Below are positions 1-45,234 of a DNA stretch of 54,093 bases, piece by piece. Positions within the stretch are counted from its first letter, which is position 1; each line of letters opens with the position of its first letter. A program made the position numbers and the translations under genes. Location: positions 1 through 54,093 of IMG/VR virus record IMGVR_UViG_3300037188_000011; one strand, given 5' to 3'. The stretch comes from a virus. Taxonomy: Duplodnaviria; Caudoviricetes. The notes under the pieces are model-generated. The model worked only from the letters and a program-made list of their open reading frames with translations. It made no database searches and was not told the DNA's origin.

Positions 1-1
1 A

Positions 2-559
2 GCGCTTGGCACATGGGCTCAGGTCGCCGCGATTTCGATCGGCTCAGCCAATTCGCCCGACGCCGCAGTGGTCGGTCACATCGTCGGCACACTTCTGACC
101 GTGACGGCGGTGACGTCCGGCACGATCCTGCTCAACGATTACCTTTCGGATCTGAACGGAATCATCCAGAACGGCACGTTCGTTACATCGTTCGGAACCG
201 GAGCCGGCGGCACCGGAACCTACAACATCAACAATACGCAGACCGTTTCCGGTGCCACCTTCACGGCCACCGGTTCGGGCACCAATCTGACGGCTTCGGC
301 GGTCACCGGGTTAATCGGGATCGGTGATATCGTGACCGGCTCCGGCGTTCCGGCAAATACGTCGATCGTGAGCCAGACCAGCGGCACCACGGGCGGCGCG
401 GGCGTGTATGTGACCAATAATGCGACAACCTCATCTGGCGCGGCGCTTACCGCCAATGCGCCGATCTTGACATCGTCGGCGGATCAAACCTTTGTTCAGG
501 TCAACGCGAACCAGGTGCCGCAGCTTACCGCGCCCAACATCATCGTGGTGACGACGTAA
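2..559 (+). CDS. Baseplate J-like protein, C-terminal part (5' end outside the window)
   Basis: Frame is open from base 2 (ALGTWAQVAAISIG...). It ends QVPQLTAPNIIVVTT and its stop overlaps the ATG of the DUF2612 gene, the usual position of baseplate J. Contains two G/T-rich beta-repeat inserts. Confidence 0.7.
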   Translation, partial: ALGTWAQVAAISIGSANSPDAAVVGHIVGTLLTVTAVTSGTILLNDYLSDLNGIIQNGTFVTSFGTGAGGTGTYNINNTQTVSGATFTATGSGTNLTASAVTGLIGIGDIVTGSGVPANTSIVSQTSGTTGGAGVYVTNNATTSSGAALTANAPILTSSADQTFVQVNANQVPQLTAPNIIVVTT

Positions 560-1236
560 TGTCCGACACATCAGGCCCTCCTTACCCGCGGTACGCACCA
601 GGCTTCACGCCCGGCAGCAATTCGATCGGTGGTTTCCAGATAGGCGTGAGCCCGATAGGCGTCCTTTCGTCCTACGACGAATGGCTCACTGTGATGGTCG
701 AGTACGCGAACTCACCGGTCATCACGGCGTTTATCGAGTCATTCAACGCGGCGATCGACCAGACACAAAATATGTCGAATCTGTTCGACATGATCTGGAA
801 TGTCCTGACAGCGCAGGGATACGGCCTTGACGTCTGGGGCCGTATTGTCGGGGTGAGCCGCACGCTTCAATTCCCTAGCGGTGTTTCCTATCTCGGTTTC
901 AACGAGGCAACGGGCTGGACCGGATTTGGACAGGGCGGGTTTTTCAGCGGCGGCAGCACGACGACGAACTATCAGCTATCCGACACGGATTTCCGTCGAT
1001 TGATCCTCGCAAAGGCTGCCGGCAACATATCGGACGGATCGATCATGTCGGTAAACAAAATCTTACTGGCGCTATTTCCGCTCCGCGGTGCCTGTTACGT
1101 CATCGACAATCAGAACATGAGCCTGACATACAAGTTTCAATTTCCGCTAACCGCCGTCGAGTCAGCGATCATCCAACAATCGGGCGTCTTGCCATCAGCG
1201 GCAGGCGTCGGTATTACCATCAGTCAGAATTTTTGA
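559..1236 (+). CDS. DUF2612-family baseplate wedge protein
   Basis: Motifs EYANSPVI, TAQGYGLDVWGRIVGVSR, LSDTDFRRLILAKAAGNI and GVLPSAAGV; lies between the baseplate J and tail fibre genes. Confidence 0.85.
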   Translation: MSDTSGPPYPRYAPGFTPGSNSIGGFQIGVSPIGVLSSYDEWLTVMVEYANSPVITAFIESFNAAIDQTQNMSNLFDMIWNVLTAQGYGLDVWGRIVGVSRTLQFPSGVSYLGFNEATGWTGFGQGGFFSGGSTTTNYQLSDTDFRRLILAKAAGNISDGSIMSVNKILLALFPLRGACYVIDNQNMSLTYKFQFPLTAVESAIIQQSGVLPSAAGVGITISQNF

Positions 1237-1254
1237 CGCTCAGGAGATCACCGA

Positions 1255-2391
1255 ATGAAGCGGTTTTGGCTCCTCGTACTGGCTCTTTTCCCGACCAGCG
1301 CGTTCGCGATAAATCAGGCTAACACACCGCCGAAATTCCCGCTGGTTTGGGGAGCCAATGCCGGCCGCCCCTATCTGCGATCAATCCCGTCAGGTTCCCA
1401 GATCGGTACGCAAAATTGCGCGGCGTCGCTGAATGATGGTTTCCCGCCGCTGACGTTTGTTCCGGCCGCGGCCGGCGGCTGTCCGCCCTTCGGCCAGGAC
1501 TTCAACGGAATCCTGAAGCAGATCACGCAATGGAGCCAATGGTACCAAGCCGGAGGTCCGATTTTCTACGACTCTGCGTTCGCGTCGTCTGCGGCGAACG
1601 GATATCCGAATGGCGCGATCATTCAATCTGCAATCGTCCCAGGCGATTTCTGGATGTCGACGGCCGACAACAACACTACGAATCCTGATGCAGGGGGAGC
1701 GAATTGGGTTCCTGCTCCCGGTCAATTTCAAACCGGGATGGTCATCGGGTTTCCATCGGCGACAATTCTAACCGGTTTTGTCTCAGCGAATGGACTCACC
1801 CTCGGCAATGCATCGTCGAATGCCACCGGAAGAGCCAACGCAGACACGCAGTTTCTCTTCGCGTTCATCTGGAATAACTGCTCGAACACGCAATGCCCGA
1901 TCTATATGAGCGGCGGTGGTGCTTCGTCACGCGGCGCAAATGCGGCAGCGGATTATGCGGCCAATAAAGCAATCGCGGTTTACAATATGAATGGCACCGG
2001 AATTACCGGATCTGATTCCCAAAATGGATCATCATCTACTCTATTGTCTGGCGTGCCGATTGTCAGCGGGAATTCAACGACTCCAGGATCGATAGTAGGC
2101 GAGAATCTTCATTCCTTAATCGCTGCTGAAAATGGCCCGCACACGCACGCTAGTTTCTTGACTGATCCAGGACATACACATGGCTTTAGCGCGAATAACG
2201 CGGCGGCTTATCTGGCGAACGAGCCAACGCAAAGCGGGGGTGGTTACACTGGCAGTTCAGCGGCGACGGCCTCGATAGGCATAGCTGCGGCAACTACTGG
2301 AATCACTTTGACAAACGCGTCATCCGGTTCAGGCACTGGGCACAATACGGTATCAAGAAGTGTGCTCGTCTGGTGGGAGTTGAAACTATGA
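1255..2391 (+). CDS. Baseplate-proximal tail fibre protein with an added Sec signal peptide
   Basis: RBS AGGAG. Fibre-attachment N-domain (ASLNDGFPPLTF..GGCPPFGQDFNGIL, GYPNGAII, W.ST.DNNTTNPD) and collar-like C-domain (GENLHSL...HTH). Begins MKRFWLLVLALFPTSAFA. Confidence 0.8.
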   Translation: MKRFWLLVLALFPTSAFAINQANTPPKFPLVWGANAGRPYLRSIPSGSQIGTQNCAASLNDGFPPLTFVPAAAGGCPPFGQDFNGILKQITQWSQWYQAGGPIFYDSAFASSAANGYPNGAIIQSAIVPGDFWMSTADNNTTNPDAGGANWVPAPGQFQTGMVIGFPSATILTGFVSANGLTLGNASSNATGRANADTQFLFAFIWNNCSNTQCPIYMSGGGASSRGANAAADYAANKAIAVYNMNGTGITGSDSQNGSSSTLLSGVPIVSGNSTTPGSIVGENLHSLIAAENGPHTHASFLTDPGHTHGFSANNAAAYLANEPTQSGGGYTGSSAATASIGIAAATTGITLTNASSGSGTGHNTVSRSVLVWWELKL

Positions 2392-3089
2392 TCCGCGCCG
2401 TTATCTTGATCTTCGTTATCCTTTCATCGTCGGCGGCATGGGCGCAACAACACGAGATCACGAAATCTCGCGCCATGTCCTACAACGGCCAGTTCGAAAA
2501 TCTTGTAGCCACTTACGGTCAAGAGTTGGCTGACTGGCAGGCGCACATGGCACGCGTCAAGCAAGACAAAAAGGATGGTGTTGCGAAGGACAATGCTTTC
2601 CAGCCGTACCCCGCTCCGACCGCAGATGCAGAGATCGCGGCAAGCGTGGATGCGAACGGGAAACCGAACTACAAAATAACCGACGATAGCGCCGATGTGC
2701 TCGCTGCAAAGAAAAGCACATTGCTGTCAAAGATCAACGATGCGGAACAGAATGCCGTCTCGGTGATCTTGCCTCCGGCCGGAAAACGCGAAGCCATTGC
2801 GCTTCGCGAGAATGATATCCGCATCGCCGATGCGGCCAGAGCTGCCGACATTTATTCTAAGCAGGGGGTTCTTGCCTCGATCGGCATCGGAAAAAAGACA
2901 GCCCAAGAGATTCAGGCCGAAGTTGATAGCGGTCGCCCGACCGCGGATACCGACTTCCTGCAGCAACGAGCAAACGAACGCCAAAGGATAGAAGCTGTTC
3001 GCCGCGCCGGGGCTCAGATGATGAGTAATGTCGAGGATCTGACAGCGGCTAATATCGATAGCTGGACGATGCCATCTTTCCCGAACTGA
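2388..3089 (+). CDS. Secreted helical protein, possible tail-fibre assembly factor
   Basis: ATGA overlap with the fibre gene; signal peptide MIRAVILIFVILSSSAAWA|QQ; chaperone role inferred from position. Confidence 0.6.
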   Translation: MIRAVILIFVILSSSAAWAQQHEITKSRAMSYNGQFENLVATYGQELADWQAHMARVKQDKKDGVAKDNAFQPYPAPTADAEIAASVDANGKPNYKITDDSADVLAAKKSTLLSKINDAEQNAVSVILPPAGKREAIALRENDIRIADAARAADIYSKQGVLASIGIGKKTAQEIQAEVDSGRPTADTDFLQQRANERQRIEAVRRAGAQMMSNVEDLTAANIDSWTMPSFPN

Positions 3090-3098
3090 GAACCCGAG

Positions 3099-4928
3099 AT
3101 GCAAAAAATCAAAGCTCTGATCGCGTCCATCGTTTTCGCCGCGATTTCGATCGGTTCGGCGCTGGCGCAGAGCGGGCCTGGGTTCCCGACGACCTTTGGC
3201 TATGTGGCGACACCAGCGCAGTGGTTGGCCGCATTTACGAACAAGCAGGACTATCTCGGTGCACCACCGGTTCTGACGACGGGCGGAACGATGACGGGGA
3301 GGCTTGTTACAGCCGCGTCGACGACCGGCCTGGCTGGATTGAGTATCCCGGCCGGCACGCCCCCGACATCACCGATCAACGGCGACGTCTGGGAGACATC
3401 GACGAGCCTATTCGTCCGCATCAATGGCGCGACCTATGATTTGTTGAACGGAGCGTGCTCGATCTGCGCCGTGACGAACGGCAATAATACATTCACCGGA
3501 TTGCAAACCACTCAGGGTTTAACGACGACACAACCGGGATGGTATGCGCAGATCACCGGAGACACGTTCGCGCGAACCAGGATAGGACCGAACTCGGCTG
3601 ACATCGGATCCGTAAGCTTCGGCCCCGGCAATGCGGCTCGCGACACCCACATGGAGCGGGCTGGGGTAGCTTCGTTGCGTTTCGGTTCGGCCGATGGCGC
3701 GGCTCCGATTGCACAAACTCTTCTGGTGCAAAACGTCATTGCCGGAACCAGCAATACGGCGGGCGTCTCGTGGACCTTGCAGGGTTCGCGCGGCACCGGA
3801 ACAGGGGCGGGCGGAAATATCGTGTTCCAAGTTGCTCCGGCCGGGCTGACCGGATCGTCGCAGAATCCTTTATCGACGGCCCTGACGATATTCGGGCTGG
3901 ACGGCGGCCTTTCCACGGGCGCCGCCATCGACGAAGGGGTGGGAACCCTCAATCTCGCCGGCTCGCTCTACAATAACGGGACGGCGCCGACCGGGACCGG
4001 CGGTTATGCGCGCGCCACGTCTCCAGCCTTCGTGACCCCGGCGCTTGGCGTCGCAACAGCAACGTCGCTTGCGATCGGTGGCGCTACCATCGGCAGCAAC
4101 GCGCTGGCCGTCACCGGAACCTTCGCATTCTCTGCTGGAGGGACCTTTGGCGGCGCCGTCAACGGCATCACCACGCTCGCCAGCGGCGCCGACACGATCA
4201 CATCATCGTCTACGAGCGCACTTGCGGTTGGCCTCAATGGTGCCACCAACCCAGCATTCGTCGTCGATGCCTCAACCGCTTCACAGGCGGCCGGACTAAG
4301 CATCAAGGGTGCTGCTACGGGCGGCACCGTGGCATTGGCGGCGATCGACAGCGGCTCGAACACCAACCTCTCGATCAACGCAAAGGGCACCGGCACCATC
4401 GCAATCGGGAGTGTCTCGACCGGTGCCGTCACCATCACACCGGCCACGACATTGTCCGCTGCTCTCACTTATGGAGGCACGACGTTCGCGAACTCTGCGA
4501 CCGGGTCCGGCTCGCTGGTGGGAGGAACGAGTCCGACTCTTACCTCTCCGGTTCTCAACACGTCGTTATCTGGGTCGGCCTTCGGGACTGGTGTGCCGGT
4601 GGCCATCGCCGCTAACCTCAGCGCAAATGGTGGTCTCACGACGACGATTGCCAGCGGAGCTACCGCTATGGGCGCGGGAGCTATCAGCTCCGGCACGTGT
4701 GCGAGCGCAGTAACAGCTACGGCCACAAATGCGGCGACTACGGATGTCATCACTGCATCGTTTAATGCTGACCCAACGGCAGTTACCGGCTACATCGCCT
4801 CGACCAACGGGATGCTAACGATTATTCCTTGGTTGACCTCAGGGCAGGCAAATTTCAAGGTCTGCAATAATACCGGGTCGAGCATCACGCCGGGCGCGGT
4901 GACCATCAATTGGAGGGTCGTGCGATGA
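3099..4928 (+). CDS. Gly/Thr/Ala-rich tail-fibre-like protein with signal peptide
   Basis: Fibre motifs (TGGTMTGRL, PTSPINGDVW, TSPAFVTPALGVATATSL); signal peptide MQKIKALIASIVFAAISIGSALA|QS. Confidence 0.7.
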   Translation: MQKIKALIASIVFAAISIGSALAQSGPGFPTTFGYVATPAQWLAAFTNKQDYLGAPPVLTTGGTMTGRLVTAASTTGLAGLSIPAGTPPTSPINGDVWETSTSLFVRINGATYDLLNGACSICAVTNGNNTFTGLQTTQGLTTTQPGWYAQITGDTFARTRIGPNSADIGSVSFGPGNAARDTHMERAGVASLRFGSADGAAPIAQTLLVQNVIAGTSNTAGVSWTLQGSRGTGTGAGGNIVFQVAPAGLTGSSQNPLSTALTIFGLDGGLSTGAAIDEGVGTLNLAGSLYNNGTAPTGTGGYARATSPAFVTPALGVATATSLAIGGATIGSNALAVTGTFAFSAGGTFGGAVNGITTLASGADTITSSSTSALAVGLNGATNPAFVVDASTASQAAGLSIKGAATGGTVALAAIDSGSNTNLSINAKGTGTIAIGSVSTGAVTITPATTLSAALTYGGTTFANSATGSGSLVGGTSPTLTSPVLNTSLSGSAFGTGVPVAIAANLSANGGLTTTIASGATAMGAGAISSGTCASAVTATATNAATTDVITASFNADPTAVTGYIASTNGMLTIIPWLTSGQANFKVCNNTGSSITPGAVTINWRVVR

Positions 4929-5683
4929 GATTTAGCGCACCACTCACACTGCTATTCGCTTTATGGGCTGCAAGTGCCCAAGCACAATCTGTCGCGTTCC
5001 CCGGTCCTGGGATGACCCACGCAGCGGCATCGTCGATCACTGTCACCAATATCGGAGTGAACAACAACACGTCGGGAGCCACGCTCGCGCTAACCGCTGT
5101 CACGGTTCCTGCGAGTTCGCTGATCATTGTTGGCGTATGCGAATACAATAGTGGAACAGGCGGCTCGGGCACAGTTTCCGATGGTGTCAACACCTATACG
5201 CTGATCAAGGCCGCCTCGCCCAACAGTCTGCATGGCACATGCGGCATTTACTCAGCGCCCTCGGCCAGTCTGACTAGCGGAACAATTACATACACTAAGT
5301 TCCTGACAGGATCGATTACGGCGATTTCGGCATTCTATGCGAGAAACATGGTATCCCAGGCGGCCGATAGCGCAGTATCGGCATCAGCGACCGGAAATAG
5401 CGTGTCCCCATCGGTCACGTCTGGGACTCCCGCTGTCGCCGGAGAATTGTTCGTTGCGTTATGTGGGCAGGCTGACGTTGTTGGTCCAGTGGCCGCATTT
5501 ACACAAGACACGACGCATGGATGGGCTACGCCGTTTGTGGATTCGGTCGCAGGAACTTCGCCGACTGCCAGTGTTGATGGCGGCACGCAGGTTAATGGAT
5601 CATCGAGCTCGTTGACGTTTTCGCCGACTCTCGGAGGTGGTGGCGGCAATTGGGCCGCCATTGTAGTAGGGTTCAAACCATGA
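4925..5683 (+). CDS. Secreted beta-rich fibre-associated protein (two internal repeats)
   Basis: ATGA coupling; signal peptide MRFSAPLTLLFALWAASAQA|QS; S/T-rich beta-sandwich-like halves. Confidence 0.6.
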   Translation: MRFSAPLTLLFALWAASAQAQSVAFPGPGMTHAAASSITVTNIGVNNNTSGATLALTAVTVPASSLIIVGVCEYNSGTGGSGTVSDGVNTYTLIKAASPNSLHGTCGIYSAPSASLTSGTITYTKFLTGSITAISAFYARNMVSQAADSAVSASATGNSVSPSVTSGTPAVAGELFVALCGQADVVGPVAAFTQDTTHGWATPFVDSVAGTSPTASVDGGTQVNGSSSSLTFSPTLGGGGGNWAAIVVGFKP

Positions 5684-6828
5684 GAACTATCTTGCTCATC
5701 ATCGCGCTTGTGCTCGGGCTCGCTTCCAGCGCCGACGCACAGACGCCGCCGACCGTGATGCAGAATTGCGGCAACGCCAGTTATCCCGTGCTGCAAGGCG
5801 ACCAGCTCGTGTGCAGCTATAGCGTCCAGTTCGACGGCACCTGTAACGGGGCGGATATGTGGAACCAGTGGACGCTTACGGCGTCCCCCGCACCGTCGCC
5901 CATCTACGGCCCTTGGGCCGTGACACCATGGGAAAACCACTGGGTCAAGATCGTCGGGCACAAGATCACGGACATGACGCCCGGCGACGGCCACCCGTAT
6001 TGGCAGATCGGATCGACGTACCCGTCGGATATCGAGGGTGGCATCGGGACCGAAAACAATGGCACCGTGATGTACCCGTCCGGGCTGGTGTGGATGTTCC
6101 CGCCAGTAGGGTATGTGTCTCCAAACGGGAGAGTCCTGAAAGACCTGCACGGCAGTTGTCCGACCATCGCTCCAGGCACCCTCGCACCCCCAAACCATGC
6201 GACCGTGATGGTGACTTTCTACTACGTCGATGCCAGCGCCTTGGCACCGCCGCCGCCGCCGCCCCCACTTTGTACCACGTTCGATAGCCTTAACCCCGCC
6301 GACAAGGGCGCCGGTATCACGCTGTCGAGCGGCAACCTGATGGCGACAAGCGACGGATCGAACGCGCACGAACTCGTCCGGGCCGTCACTGGCATCGCGC
6401 CAAGCACATTACGGGTGCACTTCGAGTGGACGGTGGCCGACTCAGCGAACGCGATCAGCTATGTCGGGTTGCAGGACTCCACAATCTCGACGAACAACTC
6501 AACGGGGAGCGGAGGAACGGGGTTCGCGGTCGGCTACAGCGCGGCGGCTGGATACACCCACGCGACCAACTTCACGCCCGGTCCCGGCGCGACGGCTGCG
6601 ATGCCAAATGGCACCTACGCAATGGACTACGACAGTTTCTCTGGTGTCGCAACTGTCACGGGTCCATCCGGCTACTCCGTGACGAGAACCATGAGTGGCA
6701 CGCCAGCCACGCTATTTCCGGCCACGTCGATGTACGGCAACCCCGGCAGTATGTTCACCTATAATTTCGGCGCGTCTCCCTTCATGTATCCCGTTCCAAG
6801 CGGCTATCAGGCCGGGCTCTGCCAATAG
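5680..6828 (+). CDS. Secreted protein with a C-terminal SPRY/lectin-like domain
   Basis: Signal peptide MRTILLIIALVLGLASSADA|QT; poly-Pro linker; LNPADKGAGITLSSGNL...LFPA...NFGASPFMYPVPSGY is typical of phage SPRY-like domains. Confidence 0.65.
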   Translation: MRTILLIIALVLGLASSADAQTPPTVMQNCGNASYPVLQGDQLVCSYSVQFDGTCNGADMWNQWTLTASPAPSPIYGPWAVTPWENHWVKIVGHKITDMTPGDGHPYWQIGSTYPSDIEGGIGTENNGTVMYPSGLVWMFPPVGYVSPNGRVLKDLHGSCPTIAPGTLAPPNHATVMVTFYYVDASALAPPPPPPPLCTTFDSLNPADKGAGITLSSGNLMATSDGSNAHELVRAVTGIAPSTLRVHFEWTVADSANAISYVGLQDSTISTNNSTGSGGTGFAVGYSAAAGYTHATNFTPGPGATAAMPNGTYAMDYDSFSGVATVTGPSGYSVTRTMSGTPATLFPATSMYGNPGSMFTYNFGASPFMYPVPSGYQAGLCQ

Positions 6829-6842
6829 GGAGAGGGGAGAAA

Positions 6843-7676
6843 ATGAAACATCCCTACGAGATCCTCCGAACAGAGTACTCGCAATTGCTTTCCGCAATGG
6901 TGATCCGGCCGGAGTGCCGGGAGGCCATCGATCACGTCGCGATAAAGCTGCTCGGATACAAAACACGATATGAGCCGGTGACTGCGGCAACCGGCGTCCC
7001 GATCGTTTTCATCGGGCCATCGTTTGAGCGTGAGGCTTCGTCGAATTTTACCCGCAATGCTGCGCAGGGTTGGCCCCTGACGAGCATTTCAAAGATAATT
7101 CCGCACAACGGACCTTTCCGGACATGGGCGGATTCGGCGGTCGCAGCTTATCATCTGAACGGACTGGATCGCGTCGGATCTGCAAATTGGACCTGGGAAC
7201 TGATCTGCTTCTACGGCGAGCTTTTCAACGGCATGGGCTACCGGGACGTCCACCACATGCATACGCCGTATCTCTGGGGCGGGACGAACATCCAGACCCG
7301 CGGGAAATACGTTCAGGACGGAAAGTTCGATCCGAACGTGATGGATCCGCAACTCGGGATGATCCCGATCGGTCGCCGGATGGCAGAGATCGACCCGACT
7401 GTGGCGCTCACGCTGGTGATCCCGCCGCCGGTTCATTCCGGTATCGCGGCGCCGGATTCCGGTGGTGACACCGTGTTCGTGCAGCACGCAATGAATCGCC
7501 TCGGGTGGCAGCCGCCCCTTGCCGAAGACGGCAGCTATGGCGACCAGACCAAAAAGGCGGTGGAGCATTTTCAACGAAATTTCGGGATGAAGGTTGACTT
7601 CGCCGGCCCGGAAACCGTTATCGCGCTCAAGGCCGCGATTGCGGCGATTGAGGAATCCGAGAAGGTGACACCGTGA
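6843..7676 (+). CDS. Endolysin: lysozyme-like domain plus C-terminal peptidoglycan-binding domain
   Basis: Strong RBS GGGAGAGGGGAG. Catalytic-type motifs EREAS..F, E.FNGMGYR, PYLWGGT..GKYVQDG.FD; PG-binding motif DGSYGDQTKKAVEHFQR. Confidence 0.85.
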   Translation: MKHPYEILRTEYSQLLSAMVIRPECREAIDHVAIKLLGYKTRYEPVTAATGVPIVFIGPSFEREASSNFTRNAAQGWPLTSISKIIPHNGPFRTWADSAVAAYHLNGLDRVGSANWTWELICFYGELFNGMGYRDVHHMHTPYLWGGTNIQTRGKYVQDGKFDPNVMDPQLGMIPIGRRMAEIDPTVALTLVIPPPVHSGIAAPDSGGDTVFVQHAMNRLGWQPPLAEDGSYGDQTKKAVEHFQRNFGMKVDFAGPETVIALKAAIAAIEESEKVTP

Positions 7677-7876
7677 GCCTGTCCCGGGTGGAGATGTTGC
7701 AGGCGGTCAAGGATGGCCTGATCGACGCTACCAAGGCGCGCGTGGTGACATCGGCGGCGAACGGGATATCCGAAGGCATCCCCGCGGCGGCGCGGCAATT
7801 CGAGACCGGCATCGTGGAACTCAAAGAGGCTTACGCCGCCTTCTGCGCCGTGATAGAGAGAAATTTCCCGGAATAG
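7673..7876 (+). CDS. Hypothetical protein
   Basis: GTGA overlap with the endolysin stop; 67 aa. Confidence 0.55.
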   Translation: MSLSRVEMLQAVKDGLIDATKARVVTSAANGISEGIPAAARQFETGIVELKEAYAAFCAVIERNFPE

Positions 7877-7887
7877 GAGATCCTCCG

Positions 7888-8628
7888 ATGTTTCGACTGA
7901 TGATGGTGCCAGCGGTGCTGCTCGCGTTGCTGGCCCCGGCCGCCGCTCAATTCCCGGGGACAGTGTCGGCGCCGCCGGCGACCGTAGGAGGCCCTGTAGC
8001 CATCGGCCAGGCACAGGCCCAGGTCGACCCCGCCGGCAAGGTCGCGATTGTGGTTGCCCCTCCGGCGTCGGCCGAACCGACCGCCTCATTCAGCGTCGGG
8101 ACATGGATTGCCGATCTGCTCGGTGCATTGGTCGCGCTGTTCGGAACCGTCATCGGGTCATTTGTCACGAAATGGGTCATGGCCGTTGCGAAGAAGGCCG
8201 GGCTCGATGCGACGCAGGCGATGTCCGACAAGCTCAACTCGATCATTACGAACGGGCTGCACGACGGTGCCGCGAAGCTCGGGCAGGATCTCACTGGAAA
8301 GCTGAACGTCCAGGTCAAGAATCAGGTCATTGCGCAGGCCGTCACCTATGCGCAGACGCACGGCGTCGACACCATCAAGGATCTCGGCGGGGTCGACCTG
8401 AACGATCCGAAGGTGGTCGAGGCGCTTCAGGCCCGCGCCGCGGCGGCGCTGAGCGCCATCGGGCCGGATGCTGTCTTGGCTCCCCATGTCGTCCCGGCCG
8501 CACCGGTGGCCGCCGTGGCTGCCCCTGCGGCGGCTGTATCGCCTCCAGCCACTCCGCTGCCGATGCCGGCGCTCCTGACCGATGCCCCGATCCGGAAAAC
8601 GGAACCTCCGACCTCAGCGCTGACGTGA
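7888..8628 (+). CDS. Membrane protein (signal peptide plus one TM), LL-H-holin-like
   Basis: RBS AGGAG; N-terminal signal; TM segment WIADLLGALVALFGTVIGSFV followed by a basic helical region; lies in the lysis cluster. Confidence 0.55.
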   Translation: MFRLMMVPAVLLALLAPAAAQFPGTVSAPPATVGGPVAIGQAQAQVDPAGKVAIVVAPPASAEPTASFSVGTWIADLLGALVALFGTVIGSFVTKWVMAVAKKAGLDATQAMSDKLNSIITNGLHDGAAKLGQDLTGKLNVQVKNQVIAQAVTYAQTHGVDTIKDLGGVDLNDPKVVEALQARAAAALSAIGPDAVLAPHVVPAAPVAAVAAPAAAVSPPATPLPMPALLTDAPIRKTEPPTSALT

Positions 8629-8924
8629 ACGGCCTAATTCGCCTCGGTCTCGGGATTGCCAACGTCCCGCCTGACATGATCGCGGATATCGACGCCGCTA
8701 TCCCCGGGGCGGCGCGGATCATCGCCGCGGCAAAGAAGCTGGAACCGGACCTCCAGAAGATCGAACCGATCGTTGAGAAGTTGATGCCGCTTTGGGTGCA
8801 GGCGGCCCCGCTGATCGCCGACATGCTTCCGACGCTGAAGGCGGCATATCCGGATCTGGTGGCCCTGCTACCGCTTGCTGAGAGGATACTCGCCTTCGCG
8901 GCCGGGCCGGCGCCGAAGGGCTGA
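8625..8924 (+). CDS. Hypothetical amphipathic protein
   Basis: GTG overlaps the upstream stop; 3' part of ORF 8103..8924. Confidence 0.55.
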   Translation: MNGLIRLGLGIANVPPDMIADIDAAIPGAARIIAAAKKLEPDLQKIEPIVEKLMPLWVQAAPLIADMLPTLKAAYPDLVALLPLAERILAFAAGPAPKG

Positions 8925-9041
8925 GGCAAAAATACCACAGGCAGGTAAATTCCCCGCGGGAACCTCGGAATAGGGTTTCCCGTCATGGTCGCCGGCGTAA
9001 ACGTGTCGGCTTCCGTCAACCCACCCAAAAGGGGATCACCT

Positions 9042-9773
9042 ATGAAGAAACTCCTGCTCGCGGCAATCGCCGCTCTATTCCCTCTCGCGGCTTCGGCCGC
9101 AGATGTCGCCACCAAGGCGCCCACAAACCTGCTGAGCGGGTATCCGTTCGGGACGTCCGGCCCCTATATCGGCATTCTCACCGAGGCCGGCGCCGGCCCG
9201 GTCACCGCCAGCGTGCCAGGCGTCAACCCGGCCAGCCTGACTACGACCACCGCCGGGATCGGCATGAACTTCGGCTATGCCTGGGGGAGCAAGAATAGCC
9301 TGTTTGCCTACGCGATCGAGGGCAAGGTCACCGCCAACAACTTCAACGGCGCCAATCAGGGATTTTCGGTTTCGGGGCCGGTTTCTGCCGAGGGCACCGC
9401 ATTGGTATGGACCCCGGTATCGACAATCCAGAATGCATTCTCGCTGCTCAGCCTGCCGAACCCGTTCGCGAACATCGCCCCGTTTCCGTTGCTACCAGCG
9501 GGCGTCACGGCCAGCAATGTGCATGCTGGATTCGGCGCCGGCTTCCGGGCGGATGACGTCACGGTGGCCTATCTCGGGGCCGGGTCCAACAAAGTCTGGA
9601 GCTTCTCGCCGAAGATCGAACTGGACCTGATGGAGCAACTGAGCAACGGGTCGGCAGTTCGCGAGTACGTTGAGACCGTGTTCGAAAATAAGGGGATCCT
9701 GTTCGGCGGACCGAAGGGCGTCGTCTCAACGGTGGGAACCAAGTATATTGCCGGTGTCGCGATCGAGTTCTGA
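9042..9773 (+). CDS. Outer-membrane beta-barrel protein (Omp25/RopB-like)
   Basis: RBS AGGGGA; MKKLLLAAIAALFPLAASA|ADVATKAP is the rhizobial OMP start; G.YIG and FGYAW strands; C-terminal Phe (AGVAIEF). Confidence 0.75.
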   Translation: MKKLLLAAIAALFPLAASAADVATKAPTNLLSGYPFGTSGPYIGILTEAGAGPVTASVPGVNPASLTTTTAGIGMNFGYAWGSKNSLFAYAIEGKVTANNFNGANQGFSVSGPVSAEGTALVWTPVSTIQNAFSLLSLPNPFANIAPFPLLPAGVTASNVHAGFGAGFRADDVTVAYLGAGSNKVWSFSPKIELDLMEQLSNGSAVREYVETVFENKGILFGGPKGVVSTVGTKYIAGVAIEF

Positions 9774-9867
9774 TTATAGCCATCTTCGCGTAATGCGTGC
9801 ATAGTCGGCTCTGCTTCGATATAGCTCATCGGAGCTGGGCCGATTCTTTTTTACCGGGGAGTGCGGG

Positions 9868-16967: not shown

Positions 16968-17324
16968 TCATAGGTACATGAACTCCCGCTTGAAGTGTTT
17001 GGCTGTGACCCACTCGATCGAGCATCCGCCTGAGTATTCCCAGCCCGGAAGAAAGGCGATCGTGGTGCAGCCGCCCTTGATGATGAAAGTGAGATCGTCC
17101 ATCAGCGCGTCTTCCAGAGAGAAGGCGTGATGTTCGATCGCCTGCTTGAGGCAACCTGTGAAATTGCCGACCGAGATGTCCTCGCCGTGGCGCTCGACGT
17201 CGCGCTCCGCCGGGTTGAAGACGAAGTGGCCCTGGCGTCGCAGCATGTAGGCCGCGGCATCGAACGCCGGAAAGTTGAAGAACGGGATGTTGCTCATCGG
17301 TCCCGCCAAATAGATGCGTTTCAT
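16968..17324 (-). CDS. DUF4406 / nucleoside 2-deoxyribosyltransferase-like protein
   Basis: IYLAGPMS..P.FNFPAF, NPAE and LPGWEYSGG..IE motifs. Confidence 0.85.
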   Translation of the reverse strand: MKRIYLAGPMSNIPFFNFPAFDAAAYMLRRQGHFVFNPAERDVERHGEDISVGNFTGCLKQAIEHHAFSLEDALMDDLTFIIKGGCTTIAFLPGWEYSGGCSIEWVTAKHFKREFMYL

Positions 17325-18262
17325 AGTTCCATCTCTCTCAGGGTTTGCGCTTCGACGTCGAGGATCGAGGCGATGACTTCCGCCGCGAGCTGCGGAACGA
17401 TTGAATTGCCCGCAAGGCGCCAGAGACCAATTCGTCCGGCCATCCCATCAACCAGCATGGAAATTCCGGGTTTGGCGCGCCGCGCTTTGCCGTCGTGGCA
17501 GGTGATCCACTCGGCGTCGGACCAGAAGGTGCCGTTGCGTCGGTCGCCGACATCTGTCGTGGCAACTGGTCGATCCGATTGCGGCCGTCCGGCCCGGCGG
17601 TCGACATCCCCGCGCTGTCTTTCCAGTCGCGTGCCGATGGCGTAACCCAGAGGGAGGTACGATCCATCGGCGTGCCCTGCGACAGCTCGACCATCTTGTT
17701 CATGCTGCTGCAGTTGCCGGGTTGGTGGCTGTCCTTGAAGGAGAGCGCACCACCACAACCGGTTCCGTTCGTGTGGCGCGTCGACCGCGCAAGCCGGGAT
17801 ATCGACTGTCCGAGCGGCGATACCTTCTCTCGCCAGATCAGCGCGAACTCCGTCGAACCAACCATAGCCAGCCGCTCCCGCAACCTGCTCTCCCACGAGA
17901 ACAGGAACGTGCTGTCCTGCTGCGCGGGCGGTACGGACGATTCGATATAGGTCCGGCCACAGATGCCTTGCATCATCGGCACCACCTTGCTTGCCTGCGG
18001 CGCTGAACGGCTGGCACGGGCACGAGGCGGTCCAGAGCGGCTTGTCGTCGCTCCAGCCTGCGAGCCGGGCGGCGATGCTCCAGAGGCCGGCACCTGCGAA
18101 GAAATGGCATTGGGTATAGCCTGCGATGTCATCTGAGTTTACGTCCTTGATTGATCTGGAATCGACATCGCCTGCTGCGATCACGTTTGAAGCAATGAGT
18201 TCACGCAGCACTTCGACCGCCTCGGGGTCGATCTCGTTGTAATAGGCGCGTGGTGCGTTCAT
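17321..18262 (-). CDS. C5-cytosine DNA methyltransferase, large polypeptide
   Basis: Motif I HFFAGAG, motif IV CPCQPFS, motif VI EQV, motif VIII PH.R.R and motif X GNSIVPQ; no motif IX in this frame. Confidence 0.85.
   Translation of the reverse strand: MNAPRAYYNEIDPEAVEVLRELIASNVIAAGDVDSRSIKDVNSDDIAGYTQCHFFAGAGLWSIAARLAGWSDDKPLWTASCPCQPFSAAGKQGGADDARHLWPDLYRIVRTARAAGQHVPVLVGEQVAGAAGYGWFDGVRADLAREGIAARTVDIPACAVDAPHERNRLWWCALLQGQPPTRQLQQHEQDGRAVAGHADGSYLPLGYAIGTRLERQRGDVDRRAGRPQSDRPVATTDVGDRRNGTFWSDAEWITCHDGKARRAKPGISMLVDGMAGRIGLWRLAGNSIVPQLAAEVIASILDVEAQTLREMEL
17338..18132 (-). CDS. Nested alternative-frame polypeptide of the C5-MTase (TRD plus motif IX); start uncertain
   Basis: A 264-codon ORF entirely inside the MTase gene, with WVTPSARDWKD and NPEFPCWLMGWP (motif IX-like). 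Confidence 0.65.
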   Translation of the reverse strand: MTSQAIPNAISSQVPASGASPPGSQAGATTSRSGPPRARASRSAPQASKVVPMMQGICGRTYIESSVPPAQQDSTFLFSWESRLRERLAMVGSTEFALIWREKVSPLGQSISRLARSTRHTNGTGCGGALSFKDSHQPGNCSSMNKMVELSQGTPMDRTSLWVTPSARDWKDSAGMSTAGPDGRNRIDQLPRQMSATDATAPSGPTPSGSPATTAKRGAPNPEFPCWLMGWPDELVSGALRAIQSFRSSRRKSSPRSSTSKRKP

Positions 18263-20498: not shown

Positions 20499-21172
20499 CC
20501 CGAAGCCCTCATCTCACGAAGATATCGTACTAGGGTTTTGAGATCGTAATTGAATCGCTGCACCTCATTCGATAATTCTTGGATGAACTTGTCGTCGCGC
20601 TCAATATTCCGGACGTCCAGAGCTGGCATCGACGGGTGACAATAGACAGTGAGATTCCATTGGTCGCGCTCGCAAATCCACATAGACCCCTGAATCTGAG
20701 CGCGATGCTCCGAAAGAACGGCCGGCGGTTTCTGCAATAGCGGGATCAGAACTTCGGCTTTGGCCGTCTTTATTTCCAAGCCGCTATCGAACCCGATGAG
20801 GGAATCGGGACTACATCCGCAGGCTTTTAGACCTTCGAAGTTTTGCACGAAACCGACGCGTCGCGGCTCAACGCCGTATCTCCGGCAATACGATTGCCTG
20901 GCTTCATCCTCCATCGCGTTGCCGCGATCCATCGCAGCATTCCGATATTCTTCGGCGACTTGTCCCGTGATCTGCTCTCCTGCCAATTTATACAGAAGTT
21001 TTGTCCGGGTGACCGATGCGCCGCCATCCCGGCCAGACGCCATGATCGTCGCGAAGTTGCTGGCGGTTGGCAGGCCAAGCCGCAGCATTTTCCACTCGTC
21101 GGTTCCTTGCTCGCAGTCATGGATGACGAGCAGCGACTTCGGCGGATTCTTGATGGTTGCGGCTTTAGCCAT
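20495..21172 (-). CDS. YqaJ/lambda-exonuclease-family recombination nuclease
   Basis: QGTDEW..LRLG.PTAS, RG.AME, CSPDSLI, LEIK and QIQGSMW motifs. Confidence 0.9.
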   Translation of the reverse strand: MAKAATIKNPPKSLLVIHDCEQGTDEWKMLRLGLPTASNFATIMASGRDGGASVTRTKLLYKLAGEQITGQVAEEYRNAAMDRGNAMEDEARQSYCRRYGVEPRRVGFVQNFEGLKACGCSPDSLIGFDSGLEIKTAKAEVLIPLLQKPPAVLSEHRAQIQGSMWICERDQWNLTVYCHPSMPALDVRNIERDDKFIQELSNEVQRFNYDLKTLVRYLREMRASG

Positions 21173-33646: not shown

Positions 33647-33794
33647 TTCGAATGTATGATGTTAATGTAACCCCAGATTCTTCATGTTACGCCGGCGCTG
33701 CTCGGCCTTCATATGATCGTTCTCACGCTCGGCGCACTCTAGCACCAACGCGCGTTTGGCGATAGATAGCTTCGCAATCGCTCTCCCGTAGTCG

Positions 33795-34184
33795 CTATCC
33801 GGTTCTCAAGATCGGAGGCGATGTAGCGTGACATGATTCCCTCGCTTTCGACGGATAAAGGAGTTCGCGGCGCTTCAGCCGGGCGCCCCATTTATCCACC
33901 CGCTTCTTGTCTCGGGCCAAGGCGTTGATAGCCCGCCGCTGCGCTTTGGTCAGAAGCCACCATCCCGGGTTCGCCGCCATATAGGCGTCCCATTCGGCCG
34001 GCAGCATGTCGCCCTTGAGGTTGTTGCATATCCGGCAACAGATGACCTTCGGGCTCCGGTGTCCGCCCTTGCACCGCGGGATGGTATGATCGCGGGTCGG
34101 CATCATGTGCACGTTGCCTTGATCCATCGATCGCCGGCAGTATCCGCAGGGCTTGCCGTGGTATCGGGCGGCCAGTCTGGACAT
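33795..34184 (-). CDS. HNH endonuclease
   Basis: CGYC...TRDHTIPRCKGG...CCRICNNLKG motif. Confidence 0.8.
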   Translation of the reverse strand: MSRLAARYHGKPCGYCRRSMDQGNVHMMPTRDHTIPRCKGGHRSPKVICCRICNNLKGDMLPAEWDAYMAANPGWWLLTKAQRRAINALARDKKRVDKWGARLKRRELLYPSKARESCHATSPPILRTG

Positions 34185-41212: not shown

Positions 41213-42142
41213 ATGTGGGTTCTCAGCAACCCATCGTCGCTGCTACAGGTCATCACCGGATCGGCCGGCGCGGTTGCCGTTCACGCATCATGGGTCGATA
41301 GCGCGCAGGGCAACATCGTGCCGCAGGCGGGTGCGATCACGCCGACCGGCCAGAACGTGCCATCGATCACCGGGGCGACAACCACCACGGTTGTCCCGTC
41401 GCCAGGAGCCACGGTCACCTCATGGTCGATCTCCGGCACCACGCTGACGGTTACATCGGGGATCACCGGGACGGTGCCTGCTGGCGCGGCTCTCACGGCT
41501 ACGGGCATCGGCTTCGGCCTCAACATCCTCACGCAGCTCACCGGGACGCTTGGGGGCGCTGGCACCTATCAGCTATCGGCCAGTTCAACGAACGGCAGCG
41601 GGACACTTACGCTCACCGCCGCGCGCACCGTGCAAAAGTTGATTATCGTCAACACGTCGGTCACGATCGCCAACCAGATCACCGTGCAGCACAACGACGG
41701 GACCAACACAGTCACGGTCTACAGCGCCAGCCTCGCGCCGGGCGAGTTCTGCATGATGACGGATCAGAACGGCTGGCAGACCTACGACAAGACCGGTGCG
41801 CTCAAGACCCTGCAAACCACCGCGTTGCCGGCGGCGGCCTATGCACAGGTTCGGACCGTGGCGAGCGGGACGACGGACGCGGGGCCGACATCGATGACCT
41901 CCGGCAACTGCCTTGTGCTATGGAACAGCGCGACTGCCGGGGCCAAGACATCGACCATGCCGACCGCCGCCGGGACGAACAACCGCTTCACGATCATTGA
42001 CGTCGCGCAGACCGCGCAGACCAACGCGATCACGGCGACCCCGGCAACAGGAAGTATCACGGGCAACAATCAGGTATACACCAAGGCCGGCGTTCAATCG
42101 TGGGTCGACACCAGCTTGGGATGGGTAGCCGAGGCGGCATAA
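41213..42142 (+). CDS. Thr/Gly-rich fibre-like structural protein
   Basis: Contains the SISGTTLTVT...GT.GGAGTY module shared with the baseplate and decoration proteins. Confidence 0.65.
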   Translation: MWVLSNPSSLLQVITGSAGAVAVHASWVDSAQGNIVPQAGAITPTGQNVPSITGATTTTVVPSPGATVTSWSISGTTLTVTSGITGTVPAGAALTATGIGFGLNILTQLTGTLGGAGTYQLSASSTNGSGTLTLTAARTVQKLIIVNTSVTIANQITVQHNDGTNTVTVYSASLAPGEFCMMTDQNGWQTYDKTGALKTLQTTALPAAAYAQVRTVASGTTDAGPTSMTSGNCLVLWNSATAGAKTSTMPTAAGTNNRFTIIDVAQTAQTNAITATPATGSITGNNQVYTKAGVQSWVDTSLGWVAEAA

Positions 42143-45100
42143 TGATGAAGAACATCGGAAAAATTCTCGCGGTTCTGTTCTCGCTCGCGGCCGGGCCGGC
42201 GCTTGCCCAGGGCACGCCCGCGGGCAGCAGCGGCGATTTCCAGACCAATGCCGGCAGCCTGCGGTTCGGCAGCGTCACACCGGGAACCGGGGTTGTTGGC
42301 GCCTTCCAAAATCCAATCAACGCCGCGAGCGGGCTTCTGACGTTCTCAGGCGCCTTCGGCACGCCAACGTCGCTGATTTTGACGAATGCCACCGGGCTGC
42401 CGACAACGGGTCTGACCGGCGCCTTGCAGGCCGCGCAATTCCCCGCGCTCACCGGCGACATCACCACCACGGCTGGATCTTTGGCGACCACGCTGGCGAC
42501 CGTGAACAGCAACGTCGGATCGTTCGGATCGGCCACGTCATGCGGGGCATTTACCGTAAATGCCAAGGGCCTGATCACGGCGGCCTCGGCTTCCACATGC
42601 GCCCCGGCGATCGGAAGCGTCACAGGGCTCGGAACTGGCGTCGGGACGGCATTGGGCGTGGCAGTCGGTTCAGCTGGCGCCTTTGTCGTAAATGGCGGCG
42701 CGCTCGGCACGCCGTCGAGCGGAACACTGACTAACACCACCGGATTTCCAGCGGCGAATCTGTCCGGCACGGCGCTGCCTGCCGCAATCGTTTCATCGTC
42801 TCTGACCTCGGTTGGCACGCTCGCAACGGGCACTTGGCAGGCTACGGCGGTCGGCGCGCAATGGGGCGGAACCGGGCAGAATTTTTCGGCATCGACTGGC
42901 ATCCCATCGGTATCGAGCGGCACGTGGTTGGTCACCACGACTCCGACGCTCACGGCAACCAATGTCACCGGACTGCCGCCGCATCAGATCGCCCTATCTC
43001 TGGAATGCGCGAGTTCGACCGGATCGTCATCGAGCACGGCATATACCTGCACCACCACGCCGTCTTTCACGCCGGTCAACGGCGATCAAATCCAGTGGTT
43101 GCCAGGCACTAACGACCTGACGAATACGACCGCAGCGCCGACGCTCAACGTCAATGGAACGACCGCCTACCAAATCGTCGGCAACGGCAACAGTTCTATC
43201 ATTCAAGGCGATGTCGCCAGCGGCGCCGCGGCACATAGCTACTCGCTTCAGTTCTCCACGGCAGCCGCCGCGCCATGTTCGTCGCACTGTTGGATTCTTG
43301 ATGCGGGCCAGCGCAACAGTTGGCTCTCCACCTATGCGAACGCGACTAACAATGCGCTGAAGGCGTTTTACGCGTGCAACCCGCAGGTTACTGAATGCCG
43401 AGTTATCGATAATGCAGACTCGGAGCACACTTGCTGGCTGCCATCGACTTGTGCGTTTGGTCCGCAGCATGAAGTCAATCTTTGGGCTGCGTCGCTGTTG
43501 TCTATCTGGCAGCGCCGCGGCTTTCCGATCTATTCGACCGGATTAATCGGTCCGATCTCGATTGTCAGCACGGCGTCGCTGTTATCCAATGGCGTGTTGC
43601 CCGGCATCACATGCACGGGCACGGTCACGCAGGTATCGCTCTCGGGTGTCGGCCCGCAGCAGGCTACGGGCGCGCTGACCGGCGGCGGCACCCTCCAGAT
43701 GGCGAGCGGCGCGGTTTGCACGGTCGGGATCTCGACCTTTGTTGCTACCGCAGGCGGGACCGCTGGAGCATTCAACCGCTTCCGGGTCTATTGCGCGATC
43801 AACACAACCACCGGCAACATGACGGTGACGATCTCGGGGCAAAGCGCGAGTACGGCATGCACCGGAACCAACGCGAGTCCTTTGGCACAGGCATTCACTG
43901 TCACAAACAGCGCTGGAACGACTGCGCTTACCGTGGCGATCTCATGCACCACCGGCACATGCAATCTCGGTGGCTACGAGGAAATATACACCACCAACAA
44001 TTTCGGCTACGCGCTAGATGCGTTCGAAGCAACCGGCGGGGCGAACAGCTATTGGCTCGGCGCGGCTATCGGCAACGCGGCCTATCTAAAGCTGACGACC
44101 GGGACGGTCGCGCTGCTTGATGTCGCCATCGGGATCAACGATGCCGCTGGCTCCATTTCTTCGGCCACGGTCAACGCCAACATCGCGACCTTCATTTCAA
44201 ATTGGCCCGGCGCATCGGTGCTTGTCTGGTCCTCGTTCGCCTACACCGGGACCGGCTCGACCAACTACCCGGCGATCCAGGCTGGCGAACAGCAATACGC
44301 GCTGGCCAACGGTTACGACTTCCTGAACACCAGCGACAACTCGACCACCAACACCAGCGTCAATTATTGGAACGGCATTCAGAACTCGGACTTCACGCAT
44401 GCGACCGATATGGGCGCGGGCGCAAACTTCGCGCAGTGGTGGGCGCACATCAACGGGTCGGAAGCGCAGGCGTCGCTGACGTTCGGAGCAAACCAAGTCC
44501 CCTATCAGAATGGGTTCATCAGCTTTATCGACGGGACGGACACCTCGTCGATCAATGGGCTGGCCTCGATTTGCTATGCGACAGGCGTCACCTATTGCGG
44601 GATAGAGCGTCTTGTCTCCGCGCCGGCCGCCACGTTTCAGACCATGTGGGCGCGCGGGATTGCTGCGACAACCCAAACAGCCAGCAACGGCGCGGTGGCA
44701 CCGCTCGGGTCGCTCACGTTCGGCTATTCCAACACGGCAGGCACACAGGTGCCGGCGGCGGCGCAATTCTCATGGATCAACGATCCGGCCACCGGGCTTG
44801 TTTACGAGCCATTCAACCGGGTGCCGCTGACGACCGCCTACAGCAACGCGACCACGACACCATCAAGCATCACGGGGTGGTCGTGGGCGATCCTGTCCGG
44901 TCAAACCATGATCGTCGATTGCGATGGAATGTATCAGGCGGCCTCGACGGGCGGCTTGCGCTTTCAGGTGACCGGACCGACGATGACAGCGTTCCAGTTG
45001 GCGCATATGATGGGCCTCAACAGCACTGCCGCTTCGATGGCGTCGCCGCCGGCCGTCACGGCGGTATCGACGCTGACAAGCGCAGTCGCGGTGACCACGG

Positions 45101-45234
45101 CAACCACGAACTACGCTTTCCATCTTCACGTCTACGCCAACGCAAGCGCGGCCGGCACCTTGCAAATCCAGGGCGCGTCCGCCGCCGCCGCCAACATGAC
45201 GATAGGAGTTGGATCAACATGCGTCGTGCATTGA
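42142..45234 (+). CDS. Large secreted fibre/spike protein with an SGNH-hydrolase-like domain
   Basis: Signal peptide MMKNIGKILAVLFSLAAGPALA|QG; fibre repeats (LGTPSSGTLTN); ADS, ATGG, GIND and DFTH blocks; 20 Cys counted. Confidence 0.7.
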   Translation: MMKNIGKILAVLFSLAAGPALAQGTPAGSSGDFQTNAGSLRFGSVTPGTGVVGAFQNPINAASGLLTFSGAFGTPTSLILTNATGLPTTGLTGALQAAQFPALTGDITTTAGSLATTLATVNSNVGSFGSATSCGAFTVNAKGLITAASASTCAPAIGSVTGLGTGVGTALGVAVGSAGAFVVNGGALGTPSSGTLTNTTGFPAANLSGTALPAAIVSSSLTSVGTLATGTWQATAVGAQWGGTGQNFSASTGIPSVSSGTWLVTTTPTLTATNVTGLPPHQIALSLECASSTGSSSSTAYTCTTTPSFTPVNGDQIQWLPGTNDLTNTTAAPTLNVNGTTAYQIVGNGNSSIIQGDVASGAAAHSYSLQFSTAAAAPCSSHCWILDAGQRNSWLSTYANATNNALKAFYACNPQVTECRVIDNADSEHTCWLPSTCAFGPQHEVNLWAASLLSIWQRRGFPIYSTGLIGPISIVSTASLLSNGVLPGITCTGTVTQVSLSGVGPQQATGALTGGGTLQMASGAVCTVGISTFVATAGGTAGAFNRFRVYCAINTTTGNMTVTISGQSASTACTGTNASPLAQAFTVTNSAGTTALTVAISCTTGTCNLGGYEEIYTTNNFGYALDAFEATGGANSYWLGAAIGNAAYLKLTTGTVALLDVAIGINDAAGSISSATVNANIATFISNWPGASVLVWSSFAYTGTGSTNYPAIQAGEQQYALANGYDFLNTSDNSTTNTSVNYWNGIQNSDFTHATDMGAGANFAQWWAHINGSEAQASLTFGANQVPYQNGFISFIDGTDTSSINGLASICYATGVTYCGIERLVSAPAATFQTMWARGIAATTQTASNGAVAPLGSLTFGYSNTAGTQVPAAAQFSWINDPATGLVYEPFNRVPLTTAYSNATTTPSSITGWSWAILSGQTMIVDCDGMYQAASTGGLRFQVTGPTMTAFQLAHMMGLNSTAASMASPPAVTAVSTLTSAVAVTTATTNYAFHLHVYANASAAGTLQIQGASAAAANMTIGVGSTCVVH

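Follow-up and report, generated by a model that had tools for sequence, protein, structure and literature searches.

Can a tailed phage export its tail fibres and still attach them to its virions? The question is raised by IMGVR_UViG_3300037188_000011, a linear record of 54,093 bases from a virus of the Caudoviricetes, estimated to be 74% complete and referred to below, over its whole length, as the window. At positions 1255 to 6828, next to the baseplate genes, five consecutive genes (here A to E) begin with a predicted signal peptide (SP), and the first of them encodes a tail fibre with a baseplate-docking domain. To our knowledge, textbook schemes without exception place the assembly of tailed phages in the reducing cytoplasm. 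We tentatively propose that a widespread lineage of tailed phages, as yet uncultured, with genomes of about 73 kb and relatives in Bradyrhizobium and soil metagenomes, builds its virion in two compartments, with capsid, tail and baseplate made in the cytoplasm and the whole receptor-binding apparatus in the periplasm, no infectious particle appearing before lysis. The long fibre would have been the first to be exported, followed in one sub-lineage by the docking fibre and its accessory protein, the Cys pairs coming afterwards. The parts of this proposal differ in strength. Export, with disulfide formation outside the cytoplasm, is very probable from the comparisons of sequences given below; the joining of exported fibres to virions at lysis, and with it the reading taken as a whole, has in our judgement an even chance of being right.

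Five consecutive genes downstream of the baseplate begin with predicted signal peptides

Signal peptides were called by a rule-based script (not a trained predictor) requiring a basic n-region, an uncharged h-region of at least about 9 residues, small residues at −3 and −1 and no Cys at +1. The script is heuristic, and was tightened after its first version had mis-called loci L018, L025, L040 and L043. An SP was called in all five genes, each ATG standing at the n-region of a basic-hydrophobic-AxA N-terminus, and by these rules all five signals are of the Sec type, cleaved by signal peptidase I. The initial annotation had described Sec signal peptides on five consecutive genes at 1255-6828, and open reading frames (ORFs) and signals were indeed found there. 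All five genes lie on the + strand: gene A (1255..2391, 378 aa), the docking tail fibre, with an SP of 18 residues (1255-1308; MKRFWLLVLALFPTSAFA, cut before IN); gene B (2388..3089, 233 aa), a Cys-free accessory protein with an SP of 19 residues (2388-2444); gene C (3099..4928, 609 aa), a long fibre-like protein with an SP of 23 residues (3099-3167); gene D (4925..5683, 252 aa), a small protein with three Cys and an SP at about 4925-4978 or 4925-4984; and gene E (5680..6828, 382 aa), with six Cys and an SP at 5680-5739. The signals have short h-regions and total 18 to 25 residues; their n-h-c architecture is complete, and hardly any of their sequence is conserved.

The cleavage sites first proposed were recovered for A, B, C and E; for D, the script prefers ASA/QAQS over the proposed AQA/QS. 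The Cys counts of 4, 0, 4, 3 and 6 for A to E proved right, and so did the statement that structural neighbours have no signal, as none was called in the DUF2612 protein, the C-terminal part of the J-like protein, the portal, the protease, or the minor and major head proteins. About 8 of some 75 ORFs of the window carry a convincing SP, five of them being consecutive. Two other kinds of signal were considered and rejected: a lipoprotein signal, as no lipobox Cys stands at +1 in any of the five, and a Tat signal, as the n-regions (KR, R, K, R and R) show no twin-arginine motif and the SPs are 18-23 residues long (judged by eye).

The starts do not look like artefacts of gene calling. An AGGAG lies 11 nt upstream of the ATG of gene A and a GGAGG upstream of gene D, the pairs A/B, C/D and D/E overlap as ATGA and are thereby translationally coupled, and gene A of the window holds no start codon between the SP and the conserved domain. 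No terminator-like site was found on the + strand before position 9824 in a scan of the window, and promoter-like sites were not above chance (3 seen, 4.1 expected). With its ATGA overlaps, no terminator before 9824 and promoters at chance level, the block therefore reads as one late operon. The possibility that these genes are morons, that is, independently transcribed conversion genes, was rejected on the ATGA coupling, the ordinary GC content (0.57-0.61, like the rest of the window) and the lack of any promoter or terminator signal of their own.

Cleavage would give protein A the N-terminus of signal-less fibres

Residues 20-154 of protein A match positions 2-132 of the tail-fibre profile phrog_12796 (E=8.9e-32). 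The docking domain is not at the very N-terminus of the precursor, which has 18 extra residues; in the predicted mature protein it would be. Relatives of A are numerous, with 834 in one search of large protein collections and 6927, at E up to 0.001, in another. We examined the best 267 homologues, dropped 9 that had no N-domain, and retained 258, of which 132 carry an SP (SP+) and 126 do not (SP−). For 121 of 124 SP− homologues, Met1 stands six residues before a conserved column, Pro25 in A, which bears out the early claim that the signal precedes a domain normally found at the N-terminus. Among the SP+ proteins, a cleavage site was called in 128 of 132 (4 were missed), with AxA at −3/−1 in 100 of these 128, and the cut leaves exactly six residues before Pro25 in 109. 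Since the predicted cut falls six residues before Pro25, where SP− fibres begin, processing would recreate the canonical N-terminus to the residue.

This regularity bears on a possibility also raised in the initial annotation, namely that an uncleaved N-terminal anchor tethers the fibres in the inner membrane, baseplates being completed there or the anchor being removed late. Signal-anchor and signal-arrest-release (SAR) segments are known in phage lysis proteins, according to the accessible parts of PMC3765740 and PMC3556154. However, the AxA motif and its fixed distance to the domain argue for cleavage, the short h-regions and modest length of the SPs also speak against an anchor, and with an N-in anchor the fibre would still end up in the periplasm, where baseplates in the cytoplasm are out of reach. 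We regard tethered assembly as improbable.

At +1, the position that aligns with Met1 of the SP− fibres, 98 of 128 proteins have Leu, Met or Ile. This looks like either a hydrophobic N-terminal residue that was kept or the relic of an old start codon. It could also be read as a start still in use, each gene giving two products: a long one that is exported and a short one, initiated internally at the old Met, that stays in the cytoplasm and alone enters virions. The alignment with Met1, together with a Met in 36 of 128 proteins and a Leu or Ile in 62, is in favour of such dual initiation. For gene A of the window we reject it, as ATA stands at +1 and is preceded by no Shine-Dalgarno-like sequence, and in 13 of 33 distinct relatives the +1 codon is CTC, ATC, CTT or GAG, none of which is a start codon. 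A cytoplasmic form would moreover not explain the Cys pairs described in the next section, and for the family at large dual initiation appears very improbable.

An AlphaFold2 (AF2) model of A had a predicted local distance difference test (pLDDT) score of 72.5 overall. Foldseek comparison of this model with the PDB returned weak matches to tailspikes or T4 fibres only (best E=0.098), and a sequence search of the PDB with A found nothing.

The signal peptide and a cysteine pair occur together

Protein A has Cys at positions 55, 76, 209 and 214. The pair Cys55/Cys76 was present in 122 of 132 SP+ homologues versus 1 of 126 SP− homologues, a co-occurrence of signal and Cys pair such as the initial annotation had anticipated. 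The other ten SP+ proteins have neither Cys; on the SP− side, 123 have neither and 2 have one. Overall, the two Cys are both present or both absent in 255 of the 258 homologues. The lone SP− protein with both, P0092, begins at a Met that follows the cleavage site of its nearest relatives, and its start was probably mis-called. At the opposite corner, the fibre of L078/G004, a complete genome with direct terminal repeats, and nine other SP-bearing fibres have Gly and Val at the positions of Cys55 and Cys76. These ten fibres may represent an intermediate stage, with the signal already acquired and the cysteines yet to come.

Gain and loss were followed on a FastTree phylogeny of 140 full-length A proteins, built after masking the SP and the four Cys columns. 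On this tree, 10 changes are required for the SP state and 8 for the Cys pair, and the starred branches force at least 5. Proteins with neither SP nor Cys pair are found at several separate points inside the SP+ clade, such as P0050/P0059, P0038/P0054, P0073/P0105 and P0094. Across the supported contrasts, changes in the Cys pair follow those in the SP (mean 3.8 of 5), and none runs in the opposite direction. A tree built on the N-domain of A alone was poorly resolved.

Mature cysteines are even in number in signal-bearing proteins

In bacteria that make periplasmic disulfides, even Cys numbers mark exported proteins, as stated in the accessible part of PMC7678975. We fetched 82 loci related to that of the window; gene A was callable in 76, and removal of duplicates left 66, of which 30 have an SP+ gene A and 36 an SP− one. 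One of the related loci, L010, is a prophage of Bradyrhizobium oropedii Pear76. Clustering of the downstream ORFs of the loci at 60% identity gave 282 clusters. Clusters of SP proteins had an even number of mature Cys in 66 cases, an odd number in 11 and none in 16 (binomial p=1e-10), as compared to 65 even, 78 odd and 46 without Cys for SP-less clusters (p=0.32; Fisher 2e-9 between the two sets). In SP proteins of at least 300 aa, the counts were 37 even, 4 odd and 0 without Cys. The bias was found again within the A family, where mature Cys were even in 118 and odd in 14 SP+ proteins versus 37 even, 75 odd and 12 without Cys in the SP− set (Fisher 1e-20), and among the 102 SP+ homologues of C (99 even, 3 odd). 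False SP calls would weaken such a signal, not create it. In the window, the combination that marks DsbA substrates, an export signal and an even number of mature Cys, is found in A (4), C (4) and E (6); B has no Cys and D, with three, does not show it.

These numbers can be set against the idea that the hydrophobic N-termini do not serve export at all, and form instead a plug or trimerisation helix of fibres that stay in the cytoplasm, the Cys pairs becoming oxidised after release. The ten SP+ fibres without the Cys pair are compatible with it, and translocation is deduced here from protein sequences. Yet the even-Cys bias is confined to SP proteins, although all virion proteins meet the same outside; the N-termini show a complete n-h-c architecture while conserving almost no sequence; and the domain works without an SP in 126 of 258 homologues, as it does in fibres of cultured phages, whose listed matches to A begin behind the SP. 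We give this explanation very little credence.

Predicted export signals on genes B to E and in related loci

For B, relatives were found in six loci: they have an SP in the four loci where A has one (L062, L063, L065 and L066, the first three being close kin), and none in the two where A is SP− (L057 and L069). In the alignment, the SP-less forms of B start where the SP ends. From its position and its co-switching with A, B is a candidate fibre chaperone or adaptor. A predicted complex of B with a trimer of A(150-378) had a score of 0.00, which is uninformative either way. No family was found for B, C or D in Pfam or PHROGs.

Gene C behaves differently. An SP was present in all 36 C-related ORFs of the fetched loci, 13 of which lie in loci where A has none, and in 102 of 120 database homologues, the other 18 sharing only shaft repeats or being truncated. 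The cleavage context is conserved as A-x-A followed by Q-S/T-x-P, the mature protein of the window starting with QSGPGF; C has Cys at 120, 123, 534 and 589. Two of nine C relatives scanned (L001 and L054), and some database homologues, end with a Peptidase_S74 domain, an intramolecular chaperone of the kind typical of trimeric fibres; in C of the window, neither Peptidase_S74 (PF13884) nor any other Pfam match was found. Compared with cultured phages, C gave two short matches only, and its residues 61-111 match an annotated tail fibre of Rhizobium phage Paso. Since C carries an SP where A does not, export is older than the block of five genes and extends beyond it. The initial view of this block has to be corrected in that respect and also for D, support for which is weak. 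That C is always exported, and A and B only in a sub-lineage, suggests that a route for docking after lysis would have existed first, onto which the docking fibre was later moved.

D is the weakest member of the set. It has no Pfam or PHROG match, and its one relative in the loci (L078) has a doubtful SP call. E has a poly-Pro linker and a SPRY-like C-terminal half, and matches phrog_10080 (E=1.9e-4); its similarity to viral SPRY clusters, with a score of 0.88, is to be taken as a lead only. Three homologues with 46-92% identity all have an SP of divergent sequence, and the two more distant ones keep the six mature Cys (by reading). E is a candidate receptor-binding protein. Small SP proteins were also seen downstream of the fibres in L069 (12923-13753; phrog_13163, E=3.9e-24) and L055 (13929-14846; phrog_2295, E=7e-49). 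Both match C-terminal domains of large virion or baseplate-wedge proteins, so exported copies of receptor-binding-type modules recur.

Are the signal-bearing proteins part of the virion?

The SP+ and SP− sets have the same consensus residue at 113 of the 138 positions between residues 19 and 156 of A. Furthermore, conservation in the SP+ set reaches 80% or more at 68 docking positions, 47 of which keep the same residue, again at 80% or more, among SP− proteins. We conclude that the docking domain is under the same constraint with or without an SP. Four related genomes that are 92-100% complete (G002-G005, about 73-89 kb) contain the A-type domain once each, in the SP form; in G004, which is complete, A has the SP and no Cys pair. 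As the SP form is the only copy in these genomes, their virions would have no fibre of this type without it. The retained docking domain, the single copy and the position in a late operon are indirect arguments that A is still a virion part and that exported fibres would join the virion when the inner membrane is breached; Peptidase_S74 in two relatives of C also speaks for a role in the virion.

The most serious alternative is that proteins derived from fibre modules are exported and never enter the virion. Such proteins might hide the receptor or destroy it, thereby excluding superinfection or protecting progeny from debris; they might also loosen capsule or lipopolysaccharide from inside, or be secreted as free binders. 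Several observations fit this explanation: the SP of C in 13 loci with an SP− gene A, by which export is not tied to the docking fibre; the lack of a docking-type domain in D and E; the presence of an outer-membrane-like protein and another SP protein later in the same operon; and the existence of WceF, a Tat-exported bacterial enzyme of tailspike fold, described in the accessible part of PMC7949094. For C to E it would be the best reading, should these proteins prove not to be in virions. A does not fit it easily: its docking domain is at least as conserved as in SP− fibres, it is the sole copy in four genomes at least 92% complete, and its mature N-terminus would be restored to the residue; the genes are moreover coupled within a structural operon in which promoter and terminator signals are not above chance. 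For the set as a whole, we find it rather unlikely.

The pathway that we propose instead would run as follows. The receptor-binding set would consist of the docking fibre A, the accessory protein B, the long fibre C and the small binding proteins D and E, all made as Sec precursors. The unfolded precursors would cross the inner membrane through Sec, and signal peptidase I would cut after AxA, leaving on A the N-terminus of SP− fibres. Trimerisation and Dsb-dependent disulfide formation would take place in the periplasm, with helpers that need no ATP, namely B and, in relatives of C, the S74 domain. A phage-encoded Dsb-like gene was not found among 20 further ORFs scanned with Pfam, out of about 72 ORFs in the window. 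Meanwhile heads, tails and baseplates would be built in the cytoplasm as fibreless particles. Only when holin and endolysin destroy the envelope would the two pools meet and the fibres dock on the fibreless particles. As first formulated, this interpretation comprised export, periplasmic disulfides and attachment at lysis. The first two have gained strong comparative support, from the co-occurrence of SP and Cys pair, the even-Cys bias, the co-linear mature N-terminus and the co-switching of B; attachment at lysis stays at the even chance given above. Taken together, a virion-maturation pathway of this kind is plausible, undescribed and unproven.

A number of points weigh against the two-compartment proposal. 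The script that calls SPs gives false positives, as it did under its first version with L018 and L025. Ten of 132 SP+ homologues of A, including that of the complete genome G004, have no Cys pair, and the AF2 model falls below a pLDDT of 50 over residues 35-83, which hold Cys55 and Cys76. The homologue counts are not phylogenetically independent, and there are only five supported contrasts in the tree (sign test, p about 0.125). Because the SP and Cys55/Cys76 lie within 80 residues, block recombination could move both without any functional link. The SP on C in 13 of 36 cases where A has none fits a non-virion exported protein equally well, D has an odd number of Cys (3) and almost no relatives, and the SP form of A was seen in no cultured phage among the matches listed. 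Lastly, attachment after lysis would dilute the fibres and looks inefficient.

Relation to known systems

When 50,697 records of cultured phages were compared with A by tblastn, 155 gave matches, 40 of which were listed. Matches are annotated as tail fibres of Burkholderia Bcep781-like, Acinetobacter AB1-like, Xanthomonas, Ralstonia and Klebsiella phages. In each of the 40 listed records, out of 155 that match, similarity to the fibre sets in only after the SP, at query residue 19-22; a few matches that start at residue 1-2 extend over the boundary with the gene before. The Bcep781-like, AB1-like, Xanthomonas and Ralstonia fibres share the docking domain (35-50% identity over residues ~20-215) and the position after DUF2612. 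They differ in that cultured fibres have no SP in the listed matches, and the SP− database homologues have no Cys55/Cys76 pair. On sequence similarity, the closest relatives of A are therefore the SP− fibres of small myoviruses with a DUF2612 baseplate gene. A megablast search of positions 1-9000 against phages gave no match.

Virion proteins with cleavable SPs are known from filamentous phages, whose pIII and pVIII depend on Sec/YidC and mature outside the cytoplasm, pIII being disulfide-bonded. Filamentous phages are, however, extruded without lysis and all their coat proteins are membrane-inserted, whereas a lytic tailed particle would here be built in two compartments. Tail fibres of T4 can attach in vitro to fibreless particles, so that fibre docking as a last, spontaneous step outside the intact cell has a counterpart; but T4 fibres are cytoplasmic and have no SP. 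Late genes with export signals beside structural genes are also found in the form of SAR endolysins, spanins and lipoprotein or outer-membrane morons (accessible parts of PMC3765740 and PMC3556154). Those are lysis or conversion proteins, none with a baseplate-docking domain, unlike A. The accessible part of PMC7949094 presents WceF of Pantoea stewartii as a trimeric, exported glycanase of tailspike fold with a cleavable export signal. WceF is a Tat substrate encoded by a chromosomal exopolysaccharide gene and is not viral, in contrast to the short, Sec-like signals of the window, in which no twin-arginine was seen by eye. No report of tail fibres with signal peptides was found in the full-text literature, a coverage that leaves aside subscription journals and supplements.

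If the proposed pathway exists, host Sec, signal peptidase and Dsb become factors on which these phages depend, and attachment of fibres after lysis affects the measurement of burst size and the timing of lysis. Disulfide-stabilised fibres would be a resource for engineering, and the receptor-binding proteins of a large group of soil phages would be overlooked by annotation pipelines in which SP proteins are set aside as non-structural; about half of the 258 best-scoring relatives examined, drawn from the 6927 mentioned above, carry an SP. Even if the proteins were exported without joining the virion, a conserved, exported, fibre-like set in a late operon would represent an undescribed phage function.

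Neighbouring genes and the rest of the record

The left end of the record lies inside a baseplate J-like gene and the right end inside the major head gene. The 3′ part of the J-like gene (2..559, +) is an ORF whose N-terminus is outside the window; its C-terminal part, in which no SP was called, is collinear with the C-terminus of a 617-aa protein upstream of DUF2612 in L001 and has a weak match to phrog_38233. It is followed by the DUF2612 baseplate or structural protein (559..1236, +; PF11041, E=2.9e-52; phrog_587, E=2.6e-61), also without SP, and then by gene A. The record being linear and 74% complete, the tail genes between capsid and baseplate are missing from the window. The end ORF (53324-54093) and the start ORF (1-559) happen to join in frame, as they would in a circular genome. 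This was rejected as a coincidence, the former encoding a major head protein (phrog_264) and the latter the end of a J-like baseplate protein, in a linear record that is 74% complete.

Downstream of gene E, an endolysin-like gene without SP or SAR segment (6843..7676, +) matches PG_binding_1 (PF01471, E=2.4e-10) and endolysin PHROGs, and its position after the fibre genes is kept in related loci. Next comes a lysis-region gene (7888..8628, +) encoding a protein with one transmembrane segment and a cleavable-looking SP (MFRLMMVPAVLLALLAPAAA, cut before QF), relatives of which follow the endolysin in L062, L065, L073 and L082. It is a candidate for the holin or for a component of spanin type; the window showed no canonical holin. 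The outer-membrane-protein-like SP protein (9042..9773, +) ends in IEF, with a final Phe, had no match in a Pfam scan and has a relative in L001. Its gene is the last one before the first terminator-like hairpin of the + strand (9824-9844).

The remaining SP protein of the window beyond A to E, after those at 7888-8628 and 9042-9773, is a sixth fibre-like protein (42142..45234, +) of 1030 aa, rich in Gly, Ser and Thr, with 20 Cys and the SP MMKNIGKILAVLFSLAAGPALA, cut before QG. It sits among head genes, between the portal and head-morphogenesis genes, and belongs to no Pfam or PHROG family. A GINDA motif noticed in it by eye is presumably reminiscent of SGNH esterases. The complete genomes G003 (32411-33952) and G005 (25931-27238) each have an SP protein at a similar place, which, like that of the window, lies some 15-20 kb upstream of gene A. 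Finally, the early region contains three DNA methyltransferase genes, one C5 and two N6/N4, and an ERF-type recombinase, at 17321-18262 (−), 18259-19641 (−), 26660-27562 (+) and 21165-22046 (−).

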